Assembly: GCA_016841045.1 (NCBI GenBank)
Contig: JAENZX010000002.1
Span: forward strand, 18,375-50,374
DNA from: Thermincola ferriacetica
GTDB lineage: Bacteria > Bacillota > Thermincolia > Thermincolales > UBA2595
Direction: 5' to 3'
Length of the DNA stretch: 32,000 bases
Shown: piece by piece, positions 14,315 through 31,988 of the stretch
Numbering within the stretch: the first letter of the stretch is position 1
How the letters are laid out: each line of letters starts with the position of its first letter
Program-made: the position numbers and the translations under genes
The notes under the pieces: model-generated
What the model saw: only the letters and a program-made list of their open reading frames with translations
Databases searched by the model: none
Told to the model about the DNA's origin: nothing

Positions 14315-14334
14315 TATATGGGTTATACGGTTTC

Positions 14335-14381: not shown

Positions 14382-14460
14382 TTTATGTTCTTGAACTGAA
14401 ATTGAATTTGTATCATTTAAAACTACTATATACAATAAATATCAAGGGGAAATGGTTTAA

Positions 14461-16359: not shown

Positions 16360-16414
16360 GTGTGAGGCTGTCGTGCGTCTAGCCAGCTGCCATCTTCCCA
16401 TTCTGGGATCGTAG

Positions 16415-16646
16415 AAAAGATTGAAACCGCAGAGGACGGAGAGAAAGAGTTTGGGGAGTGGCGTTGTGGGTCGGGATATATTGTCGAATAATGTCGGAAT
16501 TTTTGTCAAGGAAAGTGTTGATTTTTATCGAAGAATTAACAGTAGAACAAGAAAATGGAAGTTGGTAAATGAGAAATGTGTTGGATATGAGTGCAGTGAT
16601 GCCAGGGTAGGAAGGAAGGTTTTTAATCGCGGTTTAATCTCTTTTT
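16415..16646. mobile_element. Second MITE-like element of the same repeat family
   Basis: aaaagattgaaaccgcagagg (16415-16435) faces the inverted copy cgcggtttaatctcttttt (16628-16646). It lies directly 3' of the ABC-F gene. Confidence 0.45.
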
Positions 16647-16693
16647 CCTTTTCTTTGATGAGGCCAGCTTTTTTACTGTTCCTTTTTATTGGT

Positions 16694-17007
16694 GTCCATC
16701 CGTGTAATCCGTGGCTGATTTTTTATAGCCCCCGGATTTTCTGAGACTTTGTACCTTTGTAGTTGGGTTGTATAAGTAAATATGTATGTGAGGGAGGCTG
16801 TTTTGGTTGACGGTCTCCTTTTTATTTTGGGCAGGGCTTTAGGGGTTGGAATAGATTACCACAGGGCACAGAGGGCACAGAGAAAAAATTGTATGGGATG
16901 GGCTTTAGGGTCGATACAGCTGATGATGGCGCGGATGAACACGGATACAAGAGAGTGACGGGGTAGGGAAATGTTGTGGGGGGGCGGAAAAGATTGAACC
17001 GCAGAGG
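16694..17007. repeat. Cluster of short related repeats (CACGGAT / CACAGAG / CCGCAGAGG words)
   Basis: gtccatccgtgtaatccgtggc (16694-16715) is the inverted match of gcgcggatgaacacggatac (16929-16948). The tandem accacagggcacagagggcacagag lies at 16858-16882. A third aaaagattgaaccgcagagg lies at 16988-17007. Confidence 0.5.
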
Positions 17008-17543
17008 ATGAAAAAGTACGATGTAATGCTGAAAAATTTAATCAATACCGTACTTAACACAAATATTGGCCACCTATTTTTGAAGTGACCCTAAAAAGTT
17101 AAACAAAATTTATTAAGCAACCATACAGGAATGACTGCCAGCCTTGGTCAAAATGAATAATAAAGTCATATTGACCATTGACATACGTGGACGCGGACAT
17201 GTAGGAGCATATCTTCTCATGTAAATAACACATATTTGTTTAAATCTAATCTTATAAAAAGACTTTCTTCATGTAAGAAACTAAAATGTTTCATAATTGA
17301 AAAAAAGAGCGTTCATTAGGTGAATGTTACCCCTGACCGGTAGATTTATGGGAGTTAGTGGAATTTGCCGTATTGTAGATTTATATTTTCCGGTTCTTAA
17401 TGGTCAAAATTGAGGCCCGAATAACATTGTAATTGGTAGATTGAGGTGGTAAACTTAAACCGTACTATATGAACGAACAATATTCTATAATATTAAACGA
17501 AAGGGGTGAATATATTAAAGCAAATGTACTTAGGAAGGTAAAT

Positions 17544-17620
17544 AAAAAACCGCTATTAAGTCCGCCTCGCCAAAGACCAACTTAATAACGGCAGCAGCCC
17601 GGCACTTGACAGTGCCTAGC
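17544..17620 (+). repeat. Conserved ~75-nt block, copy 1 (upstream of iclR): hairpin with conserved loop
   Basis: Stem 17550-17561/17580-17591 (11 of 12 pairs) encloses the loop CCGCCTCGCCAAAGACCA, followed by GCAGCAGCCC and the palindrome GGCACT-N4-AGTGCC. It is about 75% identical to 18436-18510. Confidence 0.5.
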
Positions 17621-17690
17621 TTCCATAGCTATTTTAATAAAAAGAGTAACAAGTGTCAATTAAAAATTAACTAAGATTGGAGCAATCGAT

Positions 17691-18434
17691 ATGATTTTAT
17701 CAGTCAAAAAAGCTATGGATATTTTAGATTGCATTGACCAAAAAGGCAGAATGAGTCTTAAGGATCTAAGCAATCAGCTGGGCATGCCCAAGAGTACCGC
17801 CTGCCAACTGGCCCAAACACTTGAGGCCTGTGGGTATCTCCAACAGGATTCAGGTACAGGAGATTATTTTCTCTCGTACAAATTCTTCCGGATTGGTTAT
17901 GATATTCTGGAAAAGCTTGGTATTCGTGAATGTGTCTTGCCGGTTATTGAAAAGCTCAGCAAGGAAACCCAAGAAACCATTAATTTAAGCGTTCTGGATG
18001 AAGCTAAGGCATTATATATCGAAAAGATTGAGACTTCGCTAATTCATACCGGGATTAAGGTAGGCAGCCATGCACCGCTGCATTGTACAGCTTCCGGAAA
18101 AGCTATGTTGGCCAGCCTGCCCCGGGAAAAGATATCTGATGTCCTGGAGAAATGTGTACCTTTTGAAGTGTTCACGGAAAAAACTATAGTAACAGTTGAA
18201 GACCTGTTGAATGAATTGGAAGTGTGCCGCGACCAGGGTTATGCGTTATGCAAAGACGAGATAGCCAAGGGTGTTTATGCAGTTGGGGCAGTCATCCATG
18301 GTTATCCCGGCAGGGAAGCGGCGGCTCTGAGCATAGCAGGACCATCCAACAGGTTTACACCGGAAAGAATGTCTGAATTAATAGATCTCATTCTTGAAGC
18401 CTGTGAAGCAATATCCCGGAAATTCAAGGCCTGA
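17691..18434 (+). CDS. IclR family transcriptional regulator
   Basis: It has an N-terminal winged HTH (MSLKDLSNQLGMPKSTACQLAQTLEACGYLQQD) and a C-terminal IclR effector domain (HCTASGKAMLASLP...ALSIAGP). Confidence 0.9.
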   Translation: MILSVKKAMDILDCIDQKGRMSLKDLSNQLGMPKSTACQLAQTLEACGYLQQDSGTGDYFLSYKFFRIGYDILEKLGIRECVLPVIEKLSKETQETINLSVLDEAKALYIEKIETSLIHTGIKVGSHAPLHCTASGKAMLASLPREKISDVLEKCVPFEVFTEKTIVTVEDLLNELEVCRDQGYALCKDEIAKGVYAVGAVIHGYPGREAAALSIAGPSNRFTPERMSELIDLILEACEAISRKFKA

Positions 18435-18435
18435 T

Positions 18436-18510
18436 AAAAACCGTAATTAAGCCCGCCTCGCCAATTGACCGGCTTATTTACGGAAGCAGCCCAATACTGA
18501 CAGGGGCCTG
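18436..18510 (+). repeat. Conserved ~75-nt block, copy 2 (between iclR stop and the UbiD-family gene)
   Basis: Stem 18441-18453/18471-18483 (12 of 13 pairs) encloses the loop CGCCTCGCCAATTGACC. Two base pairs are compensatory relative to copy 1 (U-A to C-G and U-A to A-U). Confidence 0.5.
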
Positions 18511-18643
18511 GTTTCTTATTGCCATTTTGCTTCATTAGCTGATATATAAACACCCCGTATATACACTACCTGAACGAAAGGGGGGTAAATTTACTGGCTG
18601 CAAAAATGAGGCGGGCAGACAAAAACAAAAAGGAGGAATTCTA

Positions 18644-20116
18644 GTGAAAAGTCTTAATGACTGGTTAAAAAAAGTTGAAGAAATTGGTGAGTTGGTTAGG
18701 GTAAAAGCAGAAGTAGATCCGGTATTGGAAATGTCCACGGTAACTTATTTAAACGGTAAAGAAGTCGGCGGGCCGACACTTCTGTTTGAAAATGTTAAGG
18801 GACATCCCGGACATAAGTGTCTCTTTAATCCTTTTGGCAGCAGCTTAAACAGGTTTGCTCTGGCTATCAGGGAAGAACCTAATAAAAAGCCCATTGAACT
18901 GGTTAATATTTTAAAAGGAAAAATGAACAAGAAAATTGCGCCCAAAGAAATTGATGCTGCTAAAGCCCCTGTAAATCAGAATATAGACATCGGTGACGCA
19001 GTTGACGTTACCATATTCCCGGCTCCCCATATGTGGCCCCATGATGGTGGCAAATATATTGGTACCGCTGACTCTGTCATTACCATGGATCCCAATACCG
19101 GTAGAGTTAACCTGGGGACTTACAGACAGATGATCGAAGGCACTCAGCAGGTCGGTTACTATTCTTCTCCTGGTAAGGACACCCTGTTAGACAGGGAATT
19201 ATGGTGGGCTAAGGGTAAGCCGGCACCGGTTGCTGCAGTATACGGCAATGATCCGCTGATGTTCATGGTTTCAGCCACCTCCTTCCCCAAGGATGTGTCG
19301 GAATATGAATATGCCGGCGGAATTGCCGGAGAACCTATTGAAGTATTCAAGAGTGATATTACAGGACTCTTGCTGCCAGCTAACGCAGAGATTATTATTG
19401 AAGGTTTCTGTTACCCCGATAAGAATGCTGAGGAAGGTCCTTTTGGTGAGTTCCAGGGCTATTACGGCCGTCCAGGCGGTCCCACTCCCTATATCGAAAT
19501 CAAGGCTATCCGCTACCGTAACAATCCTGTTCTGACATCTGCCTTAATGGCTGATTGGCCTTCTAACGAATGCGGAGTAATGTGGGGCATGGCTAAAGCA
19601 GCTAAGGTTTGGCAAGATTTGGACCTCATGGGAGTTCCGGGAATCAAAGGAGTATGGTCACCTCCGGAAGCAGCTGGCTGGGGCTGGACAGTAGTCTCCA
19701 TTGAGCAAAGATATGCCGGACACGCTGCTCAGGTAGGAGCGTTGGCGGCACAATGTATGGGAGGGGCATATTTCAGCAAATATATAGTGGTCGTTGACGA
19801 AGACATAGATCCTTCAAACCTTTCCGACGTCATTTGGGCGATGGCTACCCGTTCGCGTCCGGCACAATCAATTGATATTTTGCGCGAAACCTGGAGTACT
19901 TACCTGGATCCCAGCTTAAATCCGGCTGAAATCAGACCGTGGGGCTCAAAGATCATCATAAACGCCTGTAAAGAATTTAAGTACATTAACAGCTGGAGTA
20001 AGCGTACCCGGTTAAGTAAACCTGTGTACAAAAAGGTTGCTGCAAGGTGGACGGAACTGGGTCTTAAAGGACAGGCTCCAGAAATTGAAGTCTTTGAAGA
20101 GGATGATAAGTACTAA
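18644..20116 (+). CDS. UbiD-family prFMN-dependent (de)carboxylase, paralogue 1 (490 aa)
   Basis: It shows UbiD-family hallmarks: GGPTLLFENVKG, VNLGTYRQ (N-x-G-x-Y-R) and EEGPFGEFQGYYG (E-x4-E acid/base motif). AAGGAGG lies 7 nt upstream of the GTG start. Confidence 0.9.
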   Translation: MKSLNDWLKKVEEIGELVRVKAEVDPVLEMSTVTYLNGKEVGGPTLLFENVKGHPGHKCLFNPFGSSLNRFALAIREEPNKKPIELVNILKGKMNKKIAPKEIDAAKAPVNQNIDIGDAVDVTIFPAPHMWPHDGGKYIGTADSVITMDPNTGRVNLGTYRQMIEGTQQVGYYSSPGKDTLLDRELWWAKGKPAPVAAVYGNDPLMFMVSATSFPKDVSEYEYAGGIAGEPIEVFKSDITGLLLPANAEIIIEGFCYPDKNAEEGPFGEFQGYYGRPGGPTPYIEIKAIRYRNNPVLTSALMADWPSNECGVMWGMAKAAKVWQDLDLMGVPGIKGVWSPPEAAGWGWTVVSIEQRYAGHAAQVGALAAQCMGGAYFSKYIVVVDEDIDPSNLSDVIWAMATRSRPAQSIDILRETWSTYLDPSLNPAEIRPWGSKIIINACKEFKYINSWSKRTRLSKPVYKKVAARWTELGLKGQAPEIEVFEEDDKY

Positions 20117-20281
20117 ACATTTGATTGATTGACAGCACCCCGGGATTCAGGAATTTCTTCTCCCGCATCCCGGGGGAATTACCTTATCCCAATAAATAGC
20201 GCCAGGGGGTTATTTGCAAACCGGCCCCAAAGAGTGGATTACCTTTGATAAATTCCAAAAGGCAAATTGGGGGGAATAGTG

Positions 20282-21586
20282 ATGAATGGTGGTATAGACA
20301 CAAAATCAAATGGTAATGTTTATTTTGAACGTGGCTACGGGATTGTCGATAGTCTGAAGAACCTCCCGCACAGTTTCAATATCAAGAACATTACGGCAGC
20401 TTTAATTGCCACAGTATTTAGTTTGGCCGGACCGATAATTTTATTAATTAAAGTAGCTAATGAGGCTCATTTAACTAATGAACAAACCGGTTCCTGGCTG
20501 ATGATGATTTATCTTGTCAGCGGTATCCTGATGGTTACACTAGCCCTGTATTACAGGCAGCCTATAGCTATTGCCTTTTCGTTACCGGGCATTGTAGTTA
20601 TTGGCGGCCTATTGAAAGTGTTTTCCCTGGAACAAATGGTCGCAGGTTATGTTTTTGGGGGGGCGATAATGCTTTTCCTGGGAGTGTCCGGTTTAATTAA
20701 AAAGGTAATCAAGTATTTGCCTGTACCAATTATCATGGGTATGATTGCTGGCGCGTTGTTTAGTTACGCCACCGGAATCATTACCTCAGTTCAAAAGGAT
20801 CCCCTGGGTGCTGGTTTAACATTAGCTGCCTTTTTAATAGGAGGTCTGTTGTTTAAACGTATACCCCCTCAACTTTTAGCTTTGGCAGTTGGTATAATCG
20901 TCAGCATATTCATTATGAAGTCAAAAATAGCTTCCGATGCAATGGGCTTCTATACTCCGGTCTTTTTTAAACCAGATTTTAGTTTTGCTGCGATAGTATC
21001 TGTCAGTGTACCGTTAGTCATGATGGAACTCGCTGATTTTTTAAAAGGTTACGGTATCCTGCGAGCTAACCAATACGATCCGCCTGTTAATAGCATGATA
21101 AATTCTACCGGGATATTCACAATGATTGCTTCCTTTTTCGGGGCGCATACCATTACTGTTGCCGGTCCGGTAACTGCGATAACTTCCTGTGAAGATGCCG
21201 GGCCACTGGAACACAGGTGGGTTGGAGGGTTTTTAAAAGGGGTAATCCAGATTTTGGTTGCCTTGCTCGGTGGAATTTTAGTTCCTTTTTTAAGGGCACT
21301 TCCTTCAACTGTTGCCGCTGTTTTGGCCGGTTTAGCAATGCTCAGCTTGTTTTTAGGGGCATTTGACGTAGCCTTTAATAAGGGCAGCAACTTTAAAGTA
21401 GGTGCATTTACCGCTTTTATCGTTGCATATTCGAATATCAGTATTTACAGCATTGGCTCTCCGGTATGGGCGTTAATATTTGGTGTGATAGTTTCCCTGA
21501 TTTTTGAAAGGGAAAACATCAAGTCTTTTTTAAATCCCTCTAGCTCAACGGAAGTACCAGCTGTACCGGTTATTAATGTGGATTAA
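20282..21586 (+). CDS. benE: BenE-family benzoate/aromatic-acid:H+ symporter-like membrane protein
   Basis: It is a polytopic membrane protein. Segments recall E. coli YdcO/BenE from memory (SWLMMIYLVSGILMVTLALYYRQPIAIAFSLPG; FKPDFSFAAIVSVSVPLVMM). ATG 20282 follows a G-rich RBS. Confidence 0.75.
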   Translation: MNGGIDTKSNGNVYFERGYGIVDSLKNLPHSFNIKNITAALIATVFSLAGPIILLIKVANEAHLTNEQTGSWLMMIYLVSGILMVTLALYYRQPIAIAFSLPGIVVIGGLLKVFSLEQMVAGYVFGGAIMLFLGVSGLIKKVIKYLPVPIIMGMIAGALFSYATGIITSVQKDPLGAGLTLAAFLIGGLLFKRIPPQLLALAVGIIVSIFIMKSKIASDAMGFYTPVFFKPDFSFAAIVSVSVPLVMMELADFLKGYGILRANQYDPPVNSMINSTGIFTMIASFFGAHTITVAGPVTAITSCEDAGPLEHRWVGGFLKGVIQILVALLGGILVPFLRALPSTVAAVLAGLAMLSLFLGAFDVAFNKGSNFKVGAFTAFIVAYSNISIYSIGSPVWALIFGVIVSLIFERENIKSFLNPSSSTEVPAVPVINVD

Positions 21587-21754
21587 TTATTTCCGCTGCC
21601 TTCAGGTAATATCAGACGTGCTTTCCTGGCAGCGAACAGAACCGACTGCTGCTGTTCGACTGCCCGGAAATTACCGCAACCAAATATACAAGGCACAGAA
21701 GTATATAACTTTGTCGTCAATGAATGAGGAAAAATAAACGAGGTGATATAGCTT

Positions 21755-22357
21755 ATGAAACGAATTGTTATTGCTATTTCAGGTGCTACAGGAGCTATTT
21801 ACGGAGTACGTCTGCTAGAAGCGCTGCAGTTACAAAAAAGCTTGGAAGTTCACCTTGTTATGAGTCCGTGGGCGGAAAAAACCATTGCCTTAGAGACTAG
21901 GTACGGAATTGACCAGGTGAAAAAAATGGCTGCACACGTCCATGATTACCGGAACCAAGGTGCCCCCATTGCCAGCGGCTCTTTCGGTGTGGATGGAATG
22001 GTAGTCATCCCTTGCAGTATGAAAACCCTGTCCGGTATAGCTCATGGCTATGCTGATAACCTTATCGGCCGAGCTGCCGATGTAATGCTTAAAGACAGAA
22101 AACGGTTGATTCTTGTTCCCAGGGAAACTCCGCTCAATGAAATTCACCTGGAAAATATGCTCAAACTCACCAGAGCAGGTGTTATAATGGCCCCGCCGAT
22201 GCCGGCATTTTACAACCTGCCCACCAGTTTAGACGACATTATTAACCATCAGATTTCCCGGATTCTTGATTTATTAAATATTGAAAATCAACTGACCCGA
22301 CGCTGGGGAAATGTTTATATAGCCGATGATGAGCAAAAAGAGGCTTTGAATTATTAA
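21755..22357 (+). CDS. ubiX: Flavin prenyltransferase UbiX (prFMN synthase)
   Basis: It has MKRIVIAISGATGAIYGVRLLEAL, VIPCSMKTLSGIA and LILVPRETPL. The length is 200 aa, and it is the only UbiX gene in the window. Confidence 0.93.
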   Translation: MKRIVIAISGATGAIYGVRLLEALQLQKSLEVHLVMSPWAEKTIALETRYGIDQVKKMAAHVHDYRNQGAPIASGSFGVDGMVVIPCSMKTLSGIAHGYADNLIGRAADVMLKDRKRLILVPRETPLNEIHLENMLKLTRAGVIMAPPMPAFYNLPTSLDDIINHQISRILDLLNIENQLTRRWGNVYIADDEQKEALNY

Positions 22358-22408
22358 TAAAAAGAAAAAGTAGAAAATTTTACTAAGCTGGTTAAGGAGG
22401 CGTCAAAA

Positions 22409-23983
22409 ATGAGTGAGACCGAATTGGTAATCCCTGAAAAATTAAATATAGCCGTAGAGTTGGTCGATAAAAACCTTCAAATGGGTAGAGGAAAAAAGGT
22501 CGCAATTTATTACAAGGATCAAACATTAACTTATGAAGATGTCTACAAGTCGGTAAATAGAACCGGTAACGCTTTGAAAAATCTGGGTATTGGTATGGAG
22601 GACCGGGTGTTACTTCTGCTTTTTGATAGCCCGGAGTTTGTTGCCAGTTTTTTGGGGGCAATAAAAATTGGGGCAGTACCAATTCCTACTAATACTCTCT
22701 TAAAAGCCAGGGACTATCTGTATTTGTTAAATGACAGCCGGGCAAAAGTAGCTGTAGTCAATGAAGCTTTGGCACCGTTAATTGAAGAAGTGAGGAGTGA
22801 ACTCCTGTATCTGCGGCATTTAGTAGTAGTTGGTAACGCAGGTCCTAACCAACTGTCTTATGAACAATTGGTGGACGATGCCTGCGATGAATTAGTACCT
22901 GCGGATACCAGCAAAGATGATCCTGCGTTTTGGCTGTATAGTTCGGGTACTACCGGTTTTCCCAAAGGAACAGTCCATTTACAGCATGACATCCTGGTAG
23001 CATGCGAACTATATGGTAAAGGAATTCTAAAAATTAATGAAAACGACATTACTTTTTCCATTGCCAAACTCTTTTTCGCATATGGTTTGGGAAACGGATT
23101 ATATTTCGCTTTTTATGTGGGCGCTTCAACCGTGCTTTATCCCGACAGGTTCCTTCCACTAGTATATTTCGATATAATCAAACAATATAATCCGACTTTG
23201 TTCTTCGGTGTCCCTACCGCTTATGGTGCGATGCTCCAGGTAGCTGAAAACATTCTGAATCTAGATTTGAGTTCTGTACGGTACTGTGTTTCTGCCGGGG
23301 AAGCTTTGCCAAAGGCGATTTTTGAAGCGTGGAAGAAGAAATTTAATTTACTTATTTTAGATGGTATTGGGTCTACTGAGATTACTCATATCTTTATTTC
23401 CAACAGACCCGATGATTACAAAGGAGGGACTTCCGGTAAGCCTGTGCCGGGGTATGAAGCCAAGATTATAGACCAGGATGGCAACAAGTTACCTGATGGA
23501 GAGATGGGCACCCTGATGGTTAAAGGTGATAGTATAGCAGCTTATTATTGGAACAGGCATGAGAAAACCAAAGAAACTTTCTTCGGTCCCTGGATAAATA
23601 CCGGAGATAAATATTATGTGGATGATGAAGGCTATTACACATATGTAGGCCGGGGCGATGACATGATTAAGGCTGGTGGGATTTGGGTATCTCCCATTGA
23701 GGTAGAAAACACAATTATGGAGCATAAGGCTGTTCTTGAATGTGGGGTTATTGGTGCAGTTGATAATGACAGCCTGGTGAAACCCAAGGCTTTTGTAGTA
23801 CTAGAAGAAGGGTTTAAGGCGTCAGAGGAATTGACCACGGAGATTCAGAAATATGTTAAGGAACGGATAGCACCGTATAAGTATCCCCGCTGGATAGACT
23901 ATGTCACAGAACTGCCTAAAACAGCTACAGGTAAGACCATGAGGTTTATGCTGAGGAGACTTGATGAAGAAAAACAAAGTTGA
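22409..23983 (+). CDS. Benzoate-CoA ligase family (aromatic acid:CoA ligase, AMP-forming)
   Basis: It has the AMP-binding motif LYSSGTTGFPKGTVH, then GEALP, NTGDKY...GRGDDMIKAGGIWV and a C-terminal PKTATGKTMRF. The N-terminal pattern IPEKLNIAVELVD is typical of benzoate/hydroxybenzoate-CoA ligases. Confidence 0.85.
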   Translation: MSETELVIPEKLNIAVELVDKNLQMGRGKKVAIYYKDQTLTYEDVYKSVNRTGNALKNLGIGMEDRVLLLLFDSPEFVASFLGAIKIGAVPIPTNTLLKARDYLYLLNDSRAKVAVVNEALAPLIEEVRSELLYLRHLVVVGNAGPNQLSYEQLVDDACDELVPADTSKDDPAFWLYSSGTTGFPKGTVHLQHDILVACELYGKGILKINENDITFSIAKLFFAYGLGNGLYFAFYVGASTVLYPDRFLPLVYFDIIKQYNPTLFFGVPTAYGAMLQVAENILNLDLSSVRYCVSAGEALPKAIFEAWKKKFNLLILDGIGSTEITHIFISNRPDDYKGGTSGKPVPGYEAKIIDQDGNKLPDGEMGTLMVKGDSIAAYYWNRHEKTKETFFGPWINTGDKYYVDDEGYYTYVGRGDDMIKAGGIWVSPIEVENTIMEHKAVLECGVIGAVDNDSLVKPKAFVVLEEGFKASEELTTEIQKYVKERIAPYKYPRWIDYVTELPKTATGKTMRFMLRRLDEEKQS

Positions 23984-24125
23984 TGATTAATACCTAAACC
24001 TTAAATACCTCATAAAGCCGCTTAAGTATAAATTTTAACCTTTTATCCAGTGAATTGTTGACAGTAGCGTAATAATAGAATGGTTTAATGACAGGTATAC
24101 TTAGATTACGCTGGGAGTGACTAAA

Positions 24126-26093
24126 TTGGAAAGTGTAATCTCCATTGGTGTTATCTCAACGCATTCTGACCTGACATCTATGTGTCGTCAAGTTGGGGAT
24201 GCACCGGGGTATAGAATAATGCTCTATGAAGGAGCGCTGGATAGTTCACTGCCCGGGCTGGAATACTTCGAGAAAAAGGGTGTCGAAGTTGTAGTAACCA
24301 CCAGGGGCAATAATTTATTTGTTAAGGACCGTACTAAAATACCGGTTATAGCCGTACCTGAAAACAATTTTGATATTTTTGTTCCGTTGGCCAGAGTTCT
24401 GAAACAATACGGGACCAAAGCAACAATATTTTTTTACCGGGAATACCCGAAAGGCTTTTCTGAAATACCGGAAATCCTAGGCTTTGAGCCAAAGGTTAAA
24501 GTATTTCAGGATTCCAGCCATTTGGAAGGCATATTGGAAGAACTGCAGGGTAGTGATCAGGTCATTGTTGGGGGCGGTTACGTTTGCCAGGCGGCCTCTG
24601 CAGTGGGGTTTATTACAGAGCAGGTTAACCTGAGCAGAGAATCATTTGTTTCCGCGCTGGAGACTGCCAAAGAACTGGCAATGGTACGCCGCCAGGAAAG
24701 GAGAGAGTCCTTCCGGTTAAAAGCCATTTTAGACTGGGCGCATGAAGGAATAGTGGCCACAGATGAAAACGGGGTTATTACCCTGTTTAATAAGGCTGCG
24801 GAGAAGATTTTCAGTTTGACCGGTGAAGTTTTGGGGCATGGCTGTCAGGAGGTGCTCCCTGCCGCAAAACTACAGGAAGCAATTAGCACCGGAGAGGCAT
24901 CGATTGGGGAAATTATCCGGATAGGCAACGATGATGTAGCTGCCAACCGGGTTCCTATAATTAATGATGAGCAAATTTCCGGAATGGTTGCGACTTTTCA
25001 ACCGGTTAAGGCTATTCAGGAGATTGAGCAGAAAATCAGAAGAGGACTCTTGCCTGAAAAAAAGGGCACCCGTTACAGCTTTTCAGATATCAAAGGCCGC
25101 AGTCCGGCTATCCGTATTGCGGTAAAATTGGCCACCAGGTATGCTGATACTGATGAGGCTGTTCTGATTCTTGGGGAAAGCGGTACCGGCAAAGAATTAT
25201 TTGCTCAAAGCATTCATGGCGCATCGAAGCGGAAAAATAAGCCGTTCATGGCAGTTAACTGTGCGGCCATACCAGGGAATCTGTTGGAGAGCGAGTTGTT
25301 TGGCTATACCGAAGGGGCCTTTACCGGAGCTCGAAAAGGCGGCAAACCGGGGTTGTTCGAGCTGGCCCACGAGGGCAGCTTATTTTTGGACGAAATCGGT
25401 GATATGCCAATTGATACCCAGGCTAAACTATTGAGGGTAATTCAGGAGAAAGAAGTACGCCGGGTAGGCGGAGAACAGACGGTCAGGATCGATGTCCGTA
25501 TAATTGCTGCTACTCATAAAAATTTATTGGAGTGCGTTAGGTCTGGCGAGTTCAGGGAAGATTTATTTTATCGATTGGATGTCCTGCGCTTAAACACACC
25601 TTCATTGCTTGAACGTAAGGAAGATATACCTCTCCTGATAATGGAGATCTTAAACCGGATTGCTGACCTCTCCGTAAAACAAAAACGAGCCATTGTTGCA
25701 GCATTATCCCAGCGCTCAGATTATGAATGGCCGGGAAATGTCCGGGAACTGGAGAACATCGTCCGGCGGCTTGCTGTTTTAACTAATGGTCTGACTGAAC
25801 CGGAAGCAAGAGCAGTGGCCAGGCAGGCCCTTAACCGGTTCTATGGGGGTAAGGTAAGATATTTGCCACAGAATAACAGTCATCTTACCTTTCAAGTGCC
25901 GGTAGACGATAAACTAAATCAAATTATTTCAAAAGTTGAGAAGGAAGTCATCCGGCAAATGGTCCTGCTCTGCGGCGGAGACCGGAAACTGGCCGCCAAA
26001 AGGTTAGGGATCGGCCGTACTACTCTTTGGCGTAAAAGTGCTGAAGATCAAGAGGAAGATAATGCTTTTGAAATAGAACAGGGTAAGACGTAA
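24126..26093 (+). CDS. Sigma54-dependent transcriptional activator (PrpR_N-like sensor, PAS, AAA+, Fis-type HTH)
   Basis: It has Walker A GESGTGKE, the GAFTGA loop, Walker B LFLDEIGDM, a PAS segment (HEGIVATDENGVITLFNKAAEKIF) and a C-terminal HTH AAKRLGIGRTTLWRK. TTG 24126 is better spaced from GGGAG than the track's GTG 24117. Confidence 0.9.
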   Translation: MESVISIGVISTHSDLTSMCRQVGDAPGYRIMLYEGALDSSLPGLEYFEKKGVEVVVTTRGNNLFVKDRTKIPVIAVPENNFDIFVPLARVLKQYGTKATIFFYREYPKGFSEIPEILGFEPKVKVFQDSSHLEGILEELQGSDQVIVGGGYVCQAASAVGFITEQVNLSRESFVSALETAKELAMVRRQERRESFRLKAILDWAHEGIVATDENGVITLFNKAAEKIFSLTGEVLGHGCQEVLPAAKLQEAISTGEASIGEIIRIGNDDVAANRVPIINDEQISGMVATFQPVKAIQEIEQKIRRGLLPEKKGTRYSFSDIKGRSPAIRIAVKLATRYADTDEAVLILGESGTGKELFAQSIHGASKRKNKPFMAVNCAAIPGNLLESELFGYTEGAFTGARKGGKPGLFELAHEGSLFLDEIGDMPIDTQAKLLRVIQEKEVRRVGGEQTVRIDVRIIAATHKNLLECVRSGEFREDLFYRLDVLRLNTPSLLERKEDIPLLIMEILNRIADLSVKQKRAIVAALSQRSDYEWPGNVRELENIVRRLAVLTNGLTEPEARAVARQALNRFYGGKVRYLPQNNSHLTFQVPVDDKLNQIISKVEKEVIRQMVLLCGGDRKLAAKRLGIGRTTLWRKSAEDQEEDNAFEIEQGKT

Positions 26094-26115
26094 ATAAATA
26101 TGTATCTATTTTTAA

Positions 26116-26154
26116 GGCGGCAGGTATGCAAAACGGTACCTGCCGCCTTTTTTT
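26116..26154 (+). terminator. Strong rho-independent terminator after the sigma54 activator gene
   Basis: ggcggcaggta (26116-26126) pairs with tacctgccgcc (26137-26147), followed by T7. Confidence 0.85.
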
Positions 26155-26384
26155 GGCAACCGGTTGGTATGGTACGGGCAACTCATTGAACCTGCTTTGA
26201 GCTGATACTGTCGCAGCGTCGACGCCTGGTACAGAACTAAACTGTGAAGAGCTTAGCGGTCAGATAGTGATTATTATTGGTCCGAAATCTCCCTTTTTTG
26301 AATTTCCTCTTAATTCAATTCCAGCATTAGAACACTTTACTTTTAAATCTGACAAAAATGCTAATTAGTTCCATTAATGGGCTG

Positions 26385-26408
26385 ATGTGTTTATAAGATG
26401 AAACACAT
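26385..26408. promoter_or_regulatory. Candidate upstream activator site (palindrome) for the sigma54 activator
   Basis: This is a perfect inverted repeat, ATGTGTTT-N8-AAACACAT, centred about 140 bp upstream of the -24/-12 element. Confidence 0.4.
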
Positions 26409-26532
26409 TTCATGCTAGTCACGGAAGCCTTTGGTTGGAAATTTTCAGCCAAACCTTTTGGGCATGTAAAAACGTTATCTGAATACCGATATTTGTTTTT
26501 TGAGGTTCGTTAAAGGCCTTTCTGAATTTAGT

Positions 26533-26548
26533 TGGCATCAGGCTTGCT
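26533..26548 (+). promoter_or_regulatory. Sigma54 (-24/-12) promoter of the TAXI-TRAP / UbiD2 operon
   Basis: TGGCAT-caggc-TTGCT has the exact consensus GG-N10-GC spacing (consensus TGGCAC-N5-TTGCW). It lies about 155 nt upstream of ATG 26704 and next to a sigma54 activator gene. Confidence 0.75.
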
Positions 26549-26703
26549 ATTATTAATAGTTGTCATTAAAACTTAAACGAATGGGAGGTCTTCGAACAAT
26601 GGGAATGAACCATCGTATTTTTAAATCTTGAATTTAATTAATACCGAAAATTAATTATTCCTCATTCAGGAAACTGCAGTTATTTATGAAGGGAGGCTAA
26701 AAT

Positions 26704-28638
26704 ATGACTTGGCTGAGAAGAATTTTTGGTTTGTTGGAGGCTGGCTGCCACCGTAAACCTACCGGTTATTGGTGGCATATAACGGCGGGGTTAGCATTAA
26801 TTACTGCCGTTTTTGAGGCCTGGTCGTTGAGTGTTGGCAAGTTGAACCCATATATCCAAGGTGTGATATTCTTAAGTCTTATGCTGCCGATAGTCTTTGT
26901 TGCCCATGGTGTACGACCGGATAGCAAGGCAGCACCTTCAGTGGTAGATATTTTTCTGGTGGTCTCTTCATTAGCAGCTGGTTTATACATTTTTGTCAAC
27001 CGCGAATATTACCTTAACCGGTGGCCGCTGGCCAGCCAACTGACGGCGTGGGACCTGATTATTGGCGCCTTATTGATCATAATCGCTTTTGAGGCCTGCC
27101 GTCGTACTTTTGGAGCAGGTCTGACAAGTGTGGTGACCCTTATGATACTCTACGCCTTGTTCGGTCACCTTCTGCCTGGAGCGTTTTCTCATTCTTATAT
27201 CTCCTGGGAAGGCTTTATAGACCAGATAGCCTTCACCATAAACGGGATAATGGGCTCACCTGTACAGACTGCAGCGACGTATATCTTTGTTTTTGTCAGT
27301 TTTGGTCTTTTCCTCGATGCCTGCGGAGGTGGAGACTTTTTCTTCCGGCTGGCTAATGCCGCCGCTGCCAGCACAATAGGGGGGCAGGCTAAAGTTACCG
27401 CCATTGCCTGTGGGTTGTATGGAATGATTTCGGGCAGCCCTACCTCTGATACAGTAACTATAGGTTCCTTTGCAATTCCGAATTTGAAACGGGCAGGTTA
27501 TGATCCAATATATGCCGGGGCGGTAACAGCCGTTGCGGCTACCGGTGGGGCGGTAATGCCTCCTGTTATGGGAGCGGCAGCGTTTTTGATGGCTGAGCTT
27601 ACCGGAATCCCGTACATGGAAATCGTTGTTGCGGCAATCATACCGGCAATGTTCTATTACCTGGGAGTTTTGATGCAGGTTCATTTTCATACCTTAAAGT
27701 TTAATCTTCATAGCTCTACATCCGCTGAGTCCCCAACCCCTCTAAGGGAAGTCCTAAAGCAAAGTTACTACTTATTGCCCCTGGTCATTCTGGTCGTTTT
27801 TATACTAAAAGGCTTCACACCCATTTTTGCGGGTTTCATTGCCATCATCTCCACTGTATTGATTAGTTGGGCCAGAAAAGAAACCCGGATGGGTCCGCGC
27901 AAAATTTTGGATGTTGTTATCAGGAGCGGGTATGGGGTAGCCCCTCTGGCAGCAGTTACGGCCGCGGCTGGCATAGTAGTAGGTGTAATCATGATAACAG
28001 GGCTGGCAAGTAAGTTTATGGTGTTAATAACTGCTTTATCCGGTGGATTTATCCCCCTGGCCCTGGTTGTTGGCGCAGTGGTACTAATTATTTTAGGAAT
28101 GGGCATGCCTGTATCTCCGGTATATATTCTGGGGGCGGTGCTGGTTGCTCCTGTCCTAATAAATCTTGGATTCCCCCTAAAACTCAGCCACTTATTCATC
28201 GTATATTTCGCCTCTCTCTCGGCAATAACCCCGCCGGTTGCCGTAGCGGCCTATGCGGCAGGGGGGATTGCCAAAGCAGATCCTATGGCCATTGGATGGC
28301 GAGCCTGTCGTTTAGGGATTGTGGCATACCTGGTACCGTTTTTCTTTATGTTTGAACCTGCCCTGATACTGGAGGGTAACCCAACTGAAGTGGTCTGGGC
28401 CGTATTTACTGGAATTATCGGTGTTATCGCAATTTCAGCAGGGATAGAGGGATGGCTGAGAAAGAAAATGGGTACATGGGAGCGGGTTTTGGTGATTTGT
28501 GGCGCCTTACTGGCCATGTACCCAGGAATTATAACTGACATTATTGGGTTTGTTTTACTAGCTGTTGGTTTTTTCCGGCAGTTTGCCGGCCCACGTCATA
28601 TAACAATAGCTACAGGGGGTGAGAAAGTAAACGAGTGA
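26704..28638 (+). CDS. TAXI-type TRAP transporter fused permease (4TM/12TM DctQ-DctM fusion)
   Basis: This is a 644-aa polytopic protein. The size and architecture match the fused permease that partners TAXI receptors. GGGAGG lies 7 nt upstream of the ATG. Confidence 0.85.
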   Translation: MTWLRRIFGLLEAGCHRKPTGYWWHITAGLALITAVFEAWSLSVGKLNPYIQGVIFLSLMLPIVFVAHGVRPDSKAAPSVVDIFLVVSSLAAGLYIFVNREYYLNRWPLASQLTAWDLIIGALLIIIAFEACRRTFGAGLTSVVTLMILYALFGHLLPGAFSHSYISWEGFIDQIAFTINGIMGSPVQTAATYIFVFVSFGLFLDACGGGDFFFRLANAAAASTIGGQAKVTAIACGLYGMISGSPTSDTVTIGSFAIPNLKRAGYDPIYAGAVTAVAATGGAVMPPVMGAAAFLMAELTGIPYMEIVVAAIIPAMFYYLGVLMQVHFHTLKFNLHSSTSAESPTPLREVLKQSYYLLPLVILVVFILKGFTPIFAGFIAIISTVLISWARKETRMGPRKILDVVIRSGYGVAPLAAVTAAAGIVVGVIMITGLASKFMVLITALSGGFIPLALVVGAVVLIILGMGMPVSPVYILGAVLVAPVLINLGFPLKLSHLFIVYFASLSAITPPVAVAAYAAGGIAKADPMAIGWRACRLGIVAYLVPFFFMFEPALILEGNPTEVVWAVFTGIIGVIAISAGIEGWLRKKMGTWERVLVICGALLAMYPGIITDIIGFVLLAVGFFRQFAGPRHITIATGGEKVNE

Positions 28639-28673
28639 TATTTTAAAAATTATTAATGAAGGGGGAAGGGTTT

Positions 28674-29723
28674 ATGAATAAAAAGAAATTAAGCATTTTT
28701 TTGGCCTGTCTGGTACTGATACAGCTGCTAATGTTCGGTTGCAGCGGCAATGGCAGCAGTGGAGCCGGGAATACAGGCTCATCTTCAAAAGGGCAGCAAA
28801 AAGATACCTCGTCAGGAAAGGGTTTACCGCCGGTTAAAATAACTCTAGCTGGTGGTTCTGTTGGGGGCAGTTGGGCGGCTATTGGGGAAGGGATCGGAGA
28901 AGCAATTCGCAGAGTTGCCCCGGGCTCAGCCTTTGGCTACCAACCGGGACAGGATGGGGCTAATGCGATTACTGTCAATACCGGTCAGACAGAATTAGGA
29001 TTTCTGTTTAGTGTTATGGCCAAGGCGGCATATGAGGGAAATGAACCCTATAAACAAAAAATCAGTGATTTAAGGGCCATAGGGACCATGGGCCCGCTCA
29101 CTTATCAAATGATAGTTTCAGAAAAGTCGGGTATAAAAACTTACGCAGACCTGAAAACGAAGCCGGTCACCCTGGCAGTTAATACCAGGGACGGTACTAT
29201 GGAACTTGCCAGCCGTATAGTTTTGGAGGAACACGGAATTACCTATGAGGATATTGAAAAAAGAGGAGGTATAGTCCTCTACCTTCCCAGCGGCAATGCT
29301 CTGGATCTGATAAAAGACGGCCGTGCAGATGGACGAACGGGAATAACTAATGCTCCGGAGGCAAAGGTTAACGAAGCTGCAGCCACAACCAAGCTTGTAC
29401 TGGTACAGCCTGACCCCGCGGCTATTGAGAGAAGTATTAAAAGGCTGGGAGTTACACCTAAGTTAATTAAGAATGGGACTTATCCGTTCCAAACAGCTGA
29501 CATACCTAGTTTTGATGTGCCGATTACTATTGTCGCCAGTAAAACTTTACCTGACCAGGTAGCTTATACTGTTGCCAAGGCACTTGTGGAGCAGCTGCCT
29601 TATTTAAAAACAGTGGTTCCCAAACAGTTGGCAAATGATACCCCGAAAAGCATTGTACAGGCCAATATCCCCCTGCATCCTGGCGCAGAAAAATTCTACA
29701 GGGAAAAAGGCCTGATTAAATAA
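28674..29723 (+). CDS. TAXI-family TRAP solute-binding lipoprotein
   Basis: A signal peptide with lipobox LMFGC is followed by a Gly/Ser-rich linker. The TAXI-like core contains ITLAGGSVGGSWAAIGEGIGEAI...ELGF and LHPGAEKFYREKG. ATG 28674 follows a GGGGGAAGGG RBS. Confidence 0.85.
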   Translation: MNKKKLSIFLACLVLIQLLMFGCSGNGSSGAGNTGSSSKGQQKDTSSGKGLPPVKITLAGGSVGGSWAAIGEGIGEAIRRVAPGSAFGYQPGQDGANAITVNTGQTELGFLFSVMAKAAYEGNEPYKQKISDLRAIGTMGPLTYQMIVSEKSGIKTYADLKTKPVTLAVNTRDGTMELASRIVLEEHGITYEDIEKRGGIVLYLPSGNALDLIKDGRADGRTGITNAPEAKVNEAAATTKLVLVQPDPAAIERSIKRLGVTPKLIKNGTYPFQTADIPSFDVPITIVASKTLPDQVAYTVAKALVEQLPYLKTVVPKQLANDTPKSIVQANIPLHPGAEKFYREKGLIK

Positions 29724-29746
29724 AAAAAAAAAGAAAGGATGGTCTT

Positions 29747-31351
29747 ATGAAAGGGTATTATGATTTACATGAACATCTTGAAAATCTAGAAAAGAAAGGC
29801 TTACTCATTCGGGTAACCCGGGAAATCAACAAAGATACCCAGTTACACCCCCTTGTGCGCTGGCAGTATCGGGGAGGATTAAGTGATGCTGAACGCAAGG
29901 CATTTCTCTTTGAAAATGTTGTGGACAGCAAAGGTAAAAAATACTCAATTTCCGTGGCGGTGGCTGCTTTGGCAGGAAACAGGGAGATATATGCAGCCGG
30001 TTTGCAATGCTCATTGGAAGAAGTAAGGGAAAAATGGGAAAGGGCAATGGCCGGTCCTATAAAGCCTATTCTGGTGGAAAATGCACCGGTAATGGAAGAA
30101 GTCCATATGGGAGCAGAACTGCTTGCCGAAGGAGGGGGATTTGACGAATTTCCGGTACCTATCTCCACCCCCGGTTTTGACAATGCTCCCTATACAACCT
30201 GCACCCACTGGATTACGAAAGACCCGGATACCGGAATCCCTAACATCGGTAACTATAGGGGGCATATTAAGGGCCGTAACAAAATTGGCGTTTTCCCCTG
30301 CGGATTAGGTCAGGATATTTTGGTACACTGGCAAAAATGCAAGGACAGGGGAATTCCTTTGCAGGCTGCTTTGGTTGTAGGGGCTCCACCGGTAGTTTCA
30401 TATGCCGCGGTTCAAAAAGTTCCTTACGGACTGGATGAAATATCCATTGCCGGTGGGTTGGTAGGAGCCCCCATTAGAATGGCAAAGTGTAAAACAGTTG
30501 ACCTGGAAGTTCCGGCTGATGCGGAAATTGTTTTTGAAGGCATTATTCGTACTGATGTAATGGAACCTGAAGGACCCTTTGGGGAATCTCATGGCTACAT
30601 GCATCCCCGCCAGTTAAACCCCTTTATGGAAATTAGCTGTGTTACCCATAAGAAAAAACCAATCTGGGTATCCTTCATCAGCCAGGTTACTCCAAGCGAA
30701 AGCAGTGTAATTAAAAAAATCGGTTATGAGCCATTATTTACAGAGTATTTACAGAAAACACTAAGTATCAAAAGCGTTATTAAGGTATCGATGCATGAAC
30801 CTCTTACCAATTTACGTAAGGTGATTGTTATTCAGATGCGCAACCCCAAAGAAGTTGATGTTTGGCGGGCTCTGAACGCTTCCGCGATCTTTCATCAGGG
30901 TGTTGGCAAGATTATCATTGCTGTTGATGAGGATATTGACCCGGAAAACATGGATGCTGTCATGTGGGCTATGAGCTACAGGATGAAACCTCATAAGGAT
31001 GTGGATATTGTCAAAGGTTTGGTCAAGGGGCATGCTCCCCCGTTTAGCGGAGCCAGTGACAGCCAGGATGTGGCAGTACACGCTGACCCGGCCAATGAAT
31101 CTGCTCTATTGATAAATGCCGTGTTAAAGGAGCCCTTCCCACCGGTTTCACTTCCGAAAAAGGAATTTATGGAGGAAGCAAAAAAAATATGGGAAGAATT
31201 AGGACTGCCTAAAATTACTCCTGAGGCCCCCTGGTATGGATATTCCCTGGGCCAGTGGGACAGTGAACTGGAAGAAGAGGCAGAGTTGGCGCTTAAAGGG
31301 GATCACTATCTTACCGGCGAGAAGTTAGCAAAAAGACAGGTCAAAGTATAA
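29747..31351 (+). CDS. UbiD-family prFMN-dependent (de)carboxylase, paralogue 2 (534 aa)
   Basis: It has DLHEHLENLEKKGLLIRV, FLFENV, PNIGNYRG (N-x-G-x-Y-R) and PEGPFGESHGYMH (E-x4-E). It is about 44 aa longer than paralogue 1, with an extended C-terminus. Confidence 0.9.
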   Translation: MKGYYDLHEHLENLEKKGLLIRVTREINKDTQLHPLVRWQYRGGLSDAERKAFLFENVVDSKGKKYSISVAVAALAGNREIYAAGLQCSLEEVREKWERAMAGPIKPILVENAPVMEEVHMGAELLAEGGGFDEFPVPISTPGFDNAPYTTCTHWITKDPDTGIPNIGNYRGHIKGRNKIGVFPCGLGQDILVHWQKCKDRGIPLQAALVVGAPPVVSYAAVQKVPYGLDEISIAGGLVGAPIRMAKCKTVDLEVPADAEIVFEGIIRTDVMEPEGPFGESHGYMHPRQLNPFMEISCVTHKKKPIWVSFISQVTPSESSVIKKIGYEPLFTEYLQKTLSIKSVIKVSMHEPLTNLRKVIVIQMRNPKEVDVWRALNASAIFHQGVGKIIIAVDEDIDPENMDAVMWAMSYRMKPHKDVDIVKGLVKGHAPPFSGASDSQDVAVHADPANESALLINAVLKEPFPPVSLPKKEFMEEAKKIWEELGLPKITPEAPWYGYSLGQWDSELEEEAELALKGDHYLTGEKLAKRQVKV

Positions 31352-31361
31352 CTAAAAGCCT

Positions 31362-31390
31362 AAGGGCCGTCCTGCATGGACGGCCCTTTT
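31362..31390 (+). terminator. Rho-independent terminator after UbiD paralogue 2
   Basis: aagggccgtcc (31362-31372) pairs with ggacggccctt (31378-31388), with a T-run at 31387-31390. Confidence 0.7.
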
Positions 31391-31429
31391 CGACTCCGTT
31401 TTGATGTTTACCGGGAAGGTGGCTTTCTA

Positions 31430-31988
31430 ATGAACGTTAGAATGGAGGATAAACATCAAAAATCATTTAGGGAAATGGTTTTGATTACAATTGGGCACAG
31501 TTTAACTCACTGGTACCCGGCAACATTTTTTCTTTTGCTCCCCCTGATCGGAAAGGAACTGGGATTGAGCTATGGCCCAATTGGCTTTAGTTTGACTCTT
31601 CAGTACGTCGTTAGTTCACTTTTTAATCTGCCGGGGGGGAATGTTGGCGGATATTGTAGTAAAAAAAGGGCTATTTAATGGCGGAAGCTTTATTCTGGGT
31701 AGTATTCCATATTTTTTCATGAGTTTTACCAACAGTTTTTTGATGTTGCTACTGTGTGTTGCGTTGGTAGGCATGGGAAATAATTTGTGGCATCCCACTG
31801 CAATCTCCACATTATCACGACAATACCCTAAACAAAAGGGATTCGTACTTTCCATCCATGCAATGCGGGCAAACATCGGGGATGCTGTAGCGCCATTAAC
31901 CATCGGTGTTTTGTTAGGGTTTCTCAGTTGGAAGCAGGTGGTTGTTTGGAATGTGATTCCAGGAGTGGCTCAGCCTTCCGGTCAATGA
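31430..31988 (+). pseudogene. MFS transporter gene interrupted by a +1 frameshift in a G7 run (possibly also truncated)
   Basis: ORF 31430-31678 ends ...LFNLPGGNVGG..*, and ORF 31641-31988 starts MLADIVVKKGL. Deleting one G from GGGGGGG (31633-31639) gives LPGGMLADIVVKKG, an MFS motif-A-like loop. The stop at 31986-31988 comes after only about 186 codons. Confidence 0.6.

Follow-up and report, generated by a model that had tools for sequence, protein, structure and literature searches.

A Thermincola locus joining two divergent UbiD-family enzymes with a single UbiX, an aryl-CoA ligase and two putative regulatory modules

Introduction

Which acids are handled by two divergent UbiD-family enzymes that lie in one gene cluster with a single UbiX? 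The question is raised by a stretch of 32,000 nucleotides from Thermincola ferriacetica (contig JAENZX010000002.1, positions 18,375 to 50,374), here called the window; all coordinates below are those of the window unless another locus is named, and the view ends at position 32000. UbiD/UbiX enzymes attract interest both as catalysts of reversible (de)carboxylation and as keys to how anaerobes break down aromatic acids; few of their clades have known substrates. New UbiD specificities are still emerging, such as that of the xanthine-carboxylate decarboxylase (XCDC, 2025), and the anaerobic terephthalate route is still unassigned. An earlier note on this DNA had pointed to the cluster as a candidate funnel of uptake, CoA activation and decarboxylation. 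We propose, with roughly even confidence, that it comprises two regulated uptake and decarboxylation modules for free (hetero)aromatic acids, which have one UbiX in common and a ligase that activates a benzoate-like monocarboxylate. The cluster is a variant of the UbiD/UbiX catabolic module type and belongs to no characterised UbiD system.

Gene content and module layout

The genes concerned are the following.

17691-18434, + strand: IclR regulator, 247 amino acids (Pfam HTH_IclR; IclR_C at 1e-41; under every NCBIfam equivalog cutoff)
18644-20116, + strand: UbiD1, 490 amino acids (UbiD_N, UbiD and UbiD_C domains; core at 1e-58)
20267-21586, + strand: BenE-family transporter of the benzoate/H+ symporter type, 439 amino acids (Pfam BenE at 4.5e-65; TIGR00843 at 177, below the cutoff of 203)
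21755-22357, + strand: UbiX flavin prenyltransferase, 200 amino acids (NCBIfam UbiX models at 262 and 252 bits, above their cutoffs, that of the 262-bit model being 188)
22409-23983, + strand: aryl-CoA ligase of the benzoate-CoA-ligase family, 524 amino acids (TIGR02262 at 638 bits, cutoff 375)
24117-26093, + strand: sigma-54-dependent activator, 658 amino acids (Pfam PrpR_N, PAS, AAA+ (Sigma54_activat) and HTH_8)
26704-28638, + strand: TAXI-TRAP fused permease, 644 amino acids (TIGR02123 at 569 bits, cutoff 321)
28656-29723, + strand: TAXI-family solute-binding lipoprotein, 355 amino acids (TIGR02122 at 169 bits)
29747-31351, + strand: UbiD2, 534 amino acids (UbiD_N, UbiD and UbiD_C domains; core at 2e-51)
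31376-31988, + strand: disrupted gene of the major facilitator superfamily (MFS), in two frames (31376-31678 and 31641-31988) with weak MFS matches

All ten lie on the + strand and have unambiguous family matches in Pfam and NCBIfam, with E-values so low that a chance explanation of the gene content is excluded. The inventory of the earlier note (two UbiDs, one UbiX, a ligase, three transporters, an IclR regulator and a sigma-54 activator, on one strand) is recovered in full, except that the MFS gene is frameshifted. Its division of these genes into two modules with different regulators is likewise borne out. Module A consists of IclR, UbiD1, BenE, UbiX and the aryl-CoA ligase. Module B runs from the sigma-54 activator through a terminator and a candidate -24/-12 promoter to the TAXI permease, the TAXI binding protein, UbiD2 and a terminator hairpin. 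The UbiX gene, the only one in the window, sits between the two UbiDs; on the VdcB model its product scores 279.6, slightly short of the cutoff of 290.

The two UbiD-family enzymes

UbiD1 and UbiD2 are 28% identical to each other, and both match the UbiD_N, UbiD and UbiD_C domains of Pfam above cutoffs. The motif N-x-G-x-Y-R reads NLGTYR in UbiD1 and NIGNYR in UbiD2, and E-G-P-F-G-E is present in both, as the earlier note had it. The catalytic network of Fdc1, R173/E277/E282, is the family motif R-Xn-E-X4-(E/D) (PMC5818171). Its equivalents are R161/E264/E269 in UbiD1 and R171/E275/E280 in UbiD2, and these Arg/Glu/Glu residues are invariant in both family alignments (27 and 25 sequences). Both proteins are thus predicted, from their domains and the intact network, to be (de)carboxylases dependent on prenylated flavin mononucleotide (prFMN).

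The earlier note had called for a phylogeny that includes characterised members. For this tree the references were taken from annotated plasmid records and Protein Data Bank (PDB) alignments: the phthaloyl-CoA decarboxylase (PCD) of Aromatoleum aromaticum EbN1 with its paralogue, PpcA, PpcB, VdcC, E. coli UbiD, HmfF and PhdA. UbiD1 and UbiD2 each fall in a tight clade of their own, outside the clades of PCD, PpcA, PpcB, VdcC, UbiD, HmfF and PhdA, with long branches to every characterised enzyme in the tree. Identities within the sampled clades, from the tree alignment, are 59-84% for UbiD1 and 48-79% for UbiD2. Taken with the profile scores and the folds, this agrees with the view that the set maps onto no characterised system, for a tree that was built without isophthaloyl-CoA decarboxylase (IPCD), AbcA, the naphthalene carboxylases and XCDC. 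XCDC, of the lumazine pathway, was considered as the identity of either clade and rejected, the window having no molybdenum hydroxylase or amidase genes; it is retained as an analogue only.

The closest characterised relatives of UbiD1 are PhdA and PpcB, at 36% identity each. Its top PDB match is PhdA (7PDA, 1.4e-79), which scores 271 bits. Its NCBIfam equivalog scores lie below the cutoffs (PpcB 278 against 469, VdcC 274 against 650, PpcA 200 against 565). For UbiD2 the closest is HmfF, at 29-30% identity (top PDB match 6H6V/6H6X, 1e-47, 166 bits); HmfF stands outside the UbiD2 clade in the tree, where it clusters with other proteins. On TIGR00148, the generic model for UbiD, UbiD2 reaches 228.5 bits, under the cutoff of 244.85; on the VdcC model, whose cutoff is 650, it reaches 181. 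Its family alignment also reveals a conserved C-terminal extension of about 95 amino acids. The AlphaFold models of both proteins have UbiD folds, with predicted local distance difference test scores of 79.8 for UbiD1 and 81.7 for UbiD2 and predicted template modelling (TM) scores of 0.82-0.85. In a fold search HmfF is the best match of UbiD2 (TM score 0.82 on the target), and HudA and PhdA are the best matches of UbiD1.

The resemblance to PCD is slight. UbiD1 is 22% and UbiD2 23% identical to the EbN1 enzyme, the PCD phmmer scores are 51 and 81 bits, and PCD does not figure among the 50 best fold matches of either model. In the tree, PCD, L084_522 and L003_523 form a clade separate from those of UbiD1 and UbiD2. 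The PCD-clade UbiDs, and those only, directly adjoin CoA-transferase pairs (in EbN1 and in the related loci L003 and L084).

The earlier note was also right that no BsdD/PpcD-like small subunit is encoded here. The + strand gaps flanking ubiD1 (150-210 nt) hold only open reading frames (ORFs) of 39-58 amino acids, and no small subunit of the VdcD/PpcG/AbcD type was found in them; for comparison, a genuine VdcBCD locus carries an 86-amino-acid D gene directly after C. Neither ppcD, ppcG nor PEP-utilising (phenylphosphate synthase) genes occur among the domains of the window, and no CoA_transf_3 gene was found in it with Pfam.

Transcription signals

The signals that bear on the grouping of these genes are as follows.

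26114-26149, + strand: strong intrinsic terminator behind the activator gene (stem of 14 bp with 8 G-C pairs, then a T-run)
26533-26548, + strand: candidate sigma-54 promoter TGGCATcaggcTTGCT (-24 GG and -12 GC, 1 mismatch), about 155 nt ahead of the start of the TAXI permease gene
31362-31388, + strand: terminator-like hairpin after UbiD2 (11-bp GC-rich stem, -23 kcal/mol, then UUUU)
17545-17635, + strand: copy 1 of an operator/promoter-like element of about 90 nt, upstream of iclR (inverted repeat CCGCTATTAAG...CTTAATAACGG, then TTGACA-18-TATTTT)
18436-18525, + strand: copy 2 of the same element, upstream of ubiD1 (first 29 nt 90% identical to copy 1)

TGGCATcaggcTTGCT is the window's single -24/-12 match at one mismatch or fewer, where 1.1 would be expected over 64 kb (both strands). 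The chance of such a match on the correct strand in the gap of about 550-560 nt that precedes the TAXI permease is about 0.01. The hairpin at 31362-31388, which separates UbiD2 from the MFS gene, has a z-score of -4.4, and none of 200 shuffled sequences folds as well. With a terminator and a -24/-12 candidate before them and a hairpin after them, the genes for the TAXI permease, the binding protein and UbiD2 look like a single sigma-54-driven unit. The rpoN gene is not among the genes of the window. Among the related loci the strict -24/-12 pattern gave one match only, on the - strand of L084 and away from the homologues of UbiD1 and UbiD2.

In module A, the element of about 90 nt combines an 11-nt inverted repeat whose arms covary, CCGyTATTAAG...CTTAATAACGG, with a -35-like TTGACA box behind it; the sigma-70-like hexamers of copy 1 lie at 17606-17635. 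It is kept at both equivalent positions in the related locus L090, at about 8990-9080 and 9861-9950, as is seen in an alignment of the four copies. An RNA element was considered and rejected, as the sequence folds no better than shuffles (z -0.4 to -1.9), and no Rfam match was found for it. It is therefore read as DNA, likely an IclR operator/promoter. Since the same element precedes both genes, ubiD1 and iclR would be under common control.

Conservation in close relatives

In L090 the gene order is a UbiD2-family gene, nadC, UbiX and an ABC transporter, then activator, IclR, UbiD1, BenE and a tryptophanase-family lyase. The five shared proteins are 80-86% identical to those of the window (activator 80%, IclR 83%, BenE 86%). 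As a UbiD2-family gene and UbiX lie within 10 kb of UbiD1 in this locus, the two modules appear to be related rather than mere neighbours. The nadC gene, between the UbiD2-family gene and UbiX (L090 1-3128), is a bona fide quinolinate phosphoribosyltransferase gene (340 bits, cutoff 198), and the lyase gene follows UbiD1-BenE at 13232-14680. These two genes hint at pyridine-dicarboxylate or tryptophan-derived metabolites.

The order in L178, from a rock-porewater relative, is activator, IclR, UbiD1, ligase, thiolase/DUF35 genes and a set resembling corrinoid O-demethylases, with identities of 77-83% (activator 77%, IclR 78%, ligase 83%). In the downstream part (L178 6274-13794), two pairs of thiolase/DUF35 (zf-ChsH2) genes are accompanied by genes for URO-D, B12-binding and pterin-binding proteins, a combination characteristic of corrinoid O-demethylases. 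This part suggests a link of UbiD1 to methoxylated or hydroxylated aromatic acids.

Module B has its counterpart in L091, where an SdhAB-like flavoprotein pair is followed by TAXI permease (79%), binding protein (76%) and UbiD2 (89%). In L004, from Paradesulfitobacterium ferrireducens, the TAXI genes (permease 69%, binding protein 62% identical) and the UbiD2 homologue (79%) are parted by another UbiD, TctCAB and a cupin. Among congeners, the stable cores are activator, IclR and UbiD1 with BenE and/or ligase on the one hand, and TAXI-UbiD2 on the other. Cluster composition is shuffled even between congeners.

The ligase has its best PDB matches in anthranilate-CoA ligase (4WV3, 506 bits) and benzoate-CoA ligases (440-455 bits). 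It is 63-68% identical to homologues from Paradesulfitobacterium, Acididesulfobacillus and Desulfosporosinus, one of which is named 4-hydroxybenzoate-CoA ligase. The P. ferrireducens orthologue lies in a beta-oxidation-like cluster without any UbiD. In the window, ligase and UbiD2 fall in different predicted transcription units, with the terminator and promoter candidate between them. The TAXI binding protein has no close characterised relative; its top PDB match is 1US4 (96 bits), and it is 31% identical to its counterpart in the EbN1 phthalate cluster.

Distribution of the two families

Both families are very large, with thousands of proteins at E-values of 1e-20 or lower and identities of 60-80% across phyla. 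Scanning species-representative genomes for the UbiD2 family yielded at least 595 hits; for the UbiD1 family, metagenomes yielded at least 589. ORFs were clustered from 80 loci of each family for neighbour statistics; an antisense artefact aside, no neighbour family recurs in more than about 11 of 80 loci, so that guilt by association yields hints only. A benzoate-CoA-type ligase is found within 10 kb in only 8 of 83 UbiD2-family loci. No Syntrophorhabdus locus occurs among the best 80 of the at least 595 UbiD2 relatives, all of them at least 51% identical.

UbiD2 homologues stand beside TAXI or TctABC transporters in L001, L003, L004, L091, L092 and L094. The recurring partners of UbiD2 relatives are UbiD paralogues (up to 4 per locus), small cupins, OCD/mu-crystallin and a thiamine pyrophosphate (TPP) enzyme. 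Such contexts point loosely to di/tricarboxylic and N-heteroaromatic acids as possible substrates.

Several of these loci may be described in their own right. L092 (1-21605), L003 (1-21611) and L004 (1-21602) are multi-UbiD clusters of anaerobes, with up to 4 UbiD paralogues and TctABC. They also hold 2-3 small cupins, OCD/mu-crystallin, a TPP enzyme, aldehyde:ferredoxin oxidoreductase, ThiS and CoA-transferase pairs, a recurrent combination for which no assigned pathway was found. In L094 (4302-15453), on a plasmid of Neorhizobium petrolearium, the genes that flank a UbiD2-family member (48% identical) encode two molybdopterin subunits of the xanthine-dehydrogenase family, FAD and 2Fe-2S subunits, CoxG, GntR and UbiX. 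UbiD2 homologues of 47-51% identity are also encoded on Sinorhizobium and Paraburkholderia megaplasmids, in hosts that are genetically tractable.

For the UbiD1 family, L084 (1-9527), from a Desulfuromonadaceae metagenome-assembled genome, encodes a UbiD1 homologue (77%) 4.5 kb from a complete set of the PCD type, made up of UbiX, a PCD-clade UbiD and two CoA transferases. A sigma-54 activator gene is also present, and the - strand bears a perfect -24/-12 motif, TGGCATgttggTTGCA, at 4483. L093 (18092-26001), on plasmid 2 of A. aromaticum EbN1, has, beside the phthalate cluster, a second UbiD of the PCD-like kind that is accompanied by UbiX and an IclR gene; a further UbiD, WP_011255029, 37% identical to UbiD1, lies behind an ABC transporter. 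No assigned function was found for these two UbiDs.

Proposed function and its alternatives

In the two-module model, the one UbiX would supply the prFMN cofactor to both UbiDs. In module B, the PrpR_N-PAS sigma-54 activator would sense an effector and fire the -24/-12 promoter of the unit made up of TAXI permease, binding protein and UbiD2. The TAXI system would bring in an organic anion, for which a (hetero)aromatic or conjugated dicarboxylate is the likeliest candidate, and UbiD2 would take one carboxyl off the free acid, as HmfF does with furan-2,5-dicarboxylate. In module A, IclR would control its own gene and the ubiD1 unit through the repeated operator/promoter element, BenE would import a benzoate-like monocarboxylate, and UbiD1 would (de)carboxylate a free (hetero)aromatic acid. 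The ligase would then thioesterify a benzoate-type acid, either imported or made by one of the decarboxylases, and the CoA ester would enter a pathway encoded elsewhere. We infer from the sequences that the chemistry is on free acids rather than CoA esters, and so too the direction of the reactions, the pairing of regulators with units and the flow between modules. Free-acid chemistry is favoured because the closest characterised relatives of the two UbiDs have free acids or phenylphosphate as substrates rather than CoA esters. As for the funnel of the earlier note, it is plausible for UbiD1 and the ligase, since their linkage recurs in L178; the composition of the cluster is shuffled among congeners.

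It is tempting to go one step further. The substrates of the UbiD2 clade, whose members often occur in several copies at one locus, might be N-heteroaromatic or aromatic di/tricarboxylates, for instance a pyridine-dicarboxylate like quinolinate, and the two modules with UbiD1 and the ligase might constitute an undescribed anaerobic route that decarboxylates before CoA activation. The indirect hints behind this are the di/tricarboxylate transporters (TAXI, TctABC) found as partners, the molybdenum hydroxylases of Neorhizobium, the nadC gene of L090 and the recurrent OCD/mu-crystallin and cupins. We hold this extension to be speculative and, as it stands, rather unlikely.

It must be noted that several observations count against the two-module model. 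The -24/-12 element carries one mismatch to the consensus, and the leader in L091 does not align over it, so that it is not conserved there. In L090 and L178 the activator gene is directly upstream of IclR-UbiD1, which makes the activator's target uncertain. Outside the genus, neither UbiD family keeps a constant neighbourhood, and many UbiD1 relatives (62-64% identity) adjoin CarD and a helicase, with no catabolic context. Finally, the position of the ligase directly after UbiD1 in L178 fits equally well with decarboxylation to an acid followed by CoA activation, with carboxylation followed by CoA activation, and with decarboxylation of a CoA ester.

The second of these possibilities is the basis of the main alternative model, which we consider improbable but worth keeping in mind. 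It assumes that UbiD1 carboxylates a phenolic, amino-aromatic or unsubstituted aromatic compound, that the neighbouring ligase captures the resulting acid in the form of a CoA ester and that BenE handles the free acid. The precedents are AbcDA/BzlA, proposed for benzene, and the known succession of phenylphosphate carboxylase and 4-hydroxybenzoate-CoA ligase. Indeed, phenylphosphate carboxylase beta is the top NCBIfam equivalog of UbiD1, the adjacency of UbiD1 and ligase is kept in L178, a ligase homologue in related genera bears the name 4-hydroxybenzoate-CoA ligase, and the host belongs to a strict-anaerobe lineage. The published Peptococcaceae benzene cluster, moreover, reads UbiX-BzlA-AbcA-AbcD. 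However, UbiD1 stays far under the PpcA and PpcB cutoffs, and the window has neither an AbcD/PpcD/PpcG-type small subunit nor a phenylphosphate synthase. AbcDA is more than 96% conserved among benzene cultures, whereas the UbiD1 family is spread over many phyla at 60-84% identity and stands partly beside housekeeping genes. In L090, UbiD1 and BenE occur without the ligase.

The modules might also have no pathway in common, the locus being a variable region of independent catabolic genes for unrelated substrates that have UbiX alone in common. We think this quite unlikely. Gene order and content do differ in every relative that was examined, neither UbiD has a constant partner across phyla, the ligase orthologue of P. 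ferrireducens sits in a UbiD-free cluster, and the MFS gene appears decayed. However, three congeners keep activator, IclR and UbiD1 as a group, UbiX and a UbiD2-family gene lie no more than 10 kb from UbiD1 in L090, and the window has a single UbiX between two UbiDs.

There remains the phthalate or isophthalate analogy of the earlier note, in which TAXI would import an aromatic diacid, the ligase would form the mono-CoA ester, and decarboxylation by UbiD2 (about 60 kDa) or UbiD1 would yield benzoyl-CoA. The parts list equals that of published anaerobic phthalate clusters (TAXI-TRAP, CoA-forming enzyme, UbiD of about 60 kDa, UbiX), the terephthalate pathway has no assigned genes yet, and some UbiD2 homologues lie in clusters that also hold CoA transferases. 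The analogy nevertheless fails on the enzymes and is, in our judgement, very unlikely to be right: the two UbiDs share only 22-23% identity with PCD and belong to different clades, with PCD scores of 51 and 81 bits against 271 for PhdA and 166 for HmfF and no PCD in the top 50 fold matches; the CoA transferases of L003 and L084 adjoin the PCD-clade UbiD rather than a UbiD1 or UbiD2 homologue; the ligase is of the benzoate/anthranilate type, the isophthalate-CoA ligase (IPCL) of Syntrophorhabdus being PaaK-type and of a different family; ligase and UbiD2 belong to different transcription units; and the TAXI binding protein is just 31% identical to its EbN1 counterpart.

Surroundings of the cluster

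Housekeeping genes of Firmicute type occupy the first 16.4 kb of the window: pstB/phoU, the last part of the division cluster (ylmE, sepF, proC, yggT, ylmH, divIVA), ileS and an ABC-F ATPase, with a small acid-soluble spore protein gene among them. This gene set marks the host as a spore-forming Gram-positive bacterium; the nearest named genome is that of P. ferrireducens, whose UbiD2 homologue was mentioned above. The sole Rfam match in the window is a T-box leader at 6797-7034 (125 bits, gathering score 93), upstream of ileS. Because it spans the mechanical ORF start at 6955, the true start of ileS is probably downstream of 7034.

From the ABC-F gene to iclR (16360-17690) extends a stretch of 1.3 kb without a convincing ORF. 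It bears a hairpin resembling a terminator at 16790-16821 and short direct repeats at 16401/16974 and 16828/16894. This stretch may be a remnant or junction of a variable region.

At the other end, the frame of the MFS gene shifts at a run of seven G residues (about 31632-31639), and a stop codon lies at 31986-31988. The gene is either a pseudogene or affected by a homopolymer sequencing error. Its true start is likely the ATG at 31430, beyond the terminator hairpin of UbiD2. Orthology with the intact MFS gene that follows the UbiD2 homologue in L004 was rejected, the similarity amounting to 33% over 45 amino acids only.

Significance

Through this locus, two clades that are large, uncharacterised and highly conserved acquire a compact setting that lends itself to experiment, with a dedicated binding protein, a pair of sensors and a single UbiX. 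Substrates could be sought with the binding protein and the regulators as bait. Should the dicarboxylate reading of module B be true, anaerobes would have an entry route by free-acid decarboxylation beside the CoA-ester route for phthalates. If it is false, this would still not be a phthalate, phenol or benzene system of known type.

Comparison with known UbiD systems

VdcBCD, ShdBCD and BsdBCD, like the proposed modules, work with a UbiD and a UbiX on free aromatic acids, and the UbiX of the window comes near the VdcB cutoff. On the VdcC model (NF041204), however, UbiD1 and UbiD2 reach 274 and 181 against the cutoff of 650, and the window is without a D subunit.

The putative benzene carboxylase cluster AbcDA-BzlA-UbiX of Peptococcaceae enrichments (PMC5852087) resembles the window in having a UbiD-like enzyme, an enzyme of the benzoate-CoA-ligase family and UbiX close together on one strand in a Gram-positive anaerobe. 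That cluster has AbcD, MarR and MRP; the window lacks an AbcD-type subunit and has IclR and BenE in place of MarR and MRP. The UbiD1 family is broad and not confined to benzene degraders, and its multi-phylum spread argues against orthology to AbcA.

The phthalate cluster of A. aromaticum EbN1 has TAXI-TRAP, a CoA-forming enzyme, a UbiD of about 60 kDa and UbiX, as the window does. Its CoA-forming enzyme is the SptAB CoA-transferase pair, whereas the window has a CoA ligase instead, outside the UbiD2 unit.

The closest relatives of UbiD1, namely PhdA (phenazine-1-carboxylate decarboxylase, 7PDA), HudA (pyrrole-2-carboxylate decarboxylase, 7ABN) and PpcB, act on (hetero)aromatic substrates without CoA. 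UbiD1 forms a clade distinct from them, and the window holds no phenazine genes, Ppc accessory subunits or phenylphosphate synthase.

For UbiD2 the nearest point of comparison is HmfF of Pelotomaculum thermopropionicum (6H6V/6H6X). The two are 29-30% identical, UbiD2 lies in a deep clade of its own, HmfF is without the C-terminal extension of about 95 amino acids, and no hmf genes lie near UbiD2, which is paired instead with TAXI-TRAP and candidate sigma-54 control. They have in common the prFMN/UbiD fold and the R/E/E network, and the substrate of HmfF is a free heteroaromatic dicarboxylate.

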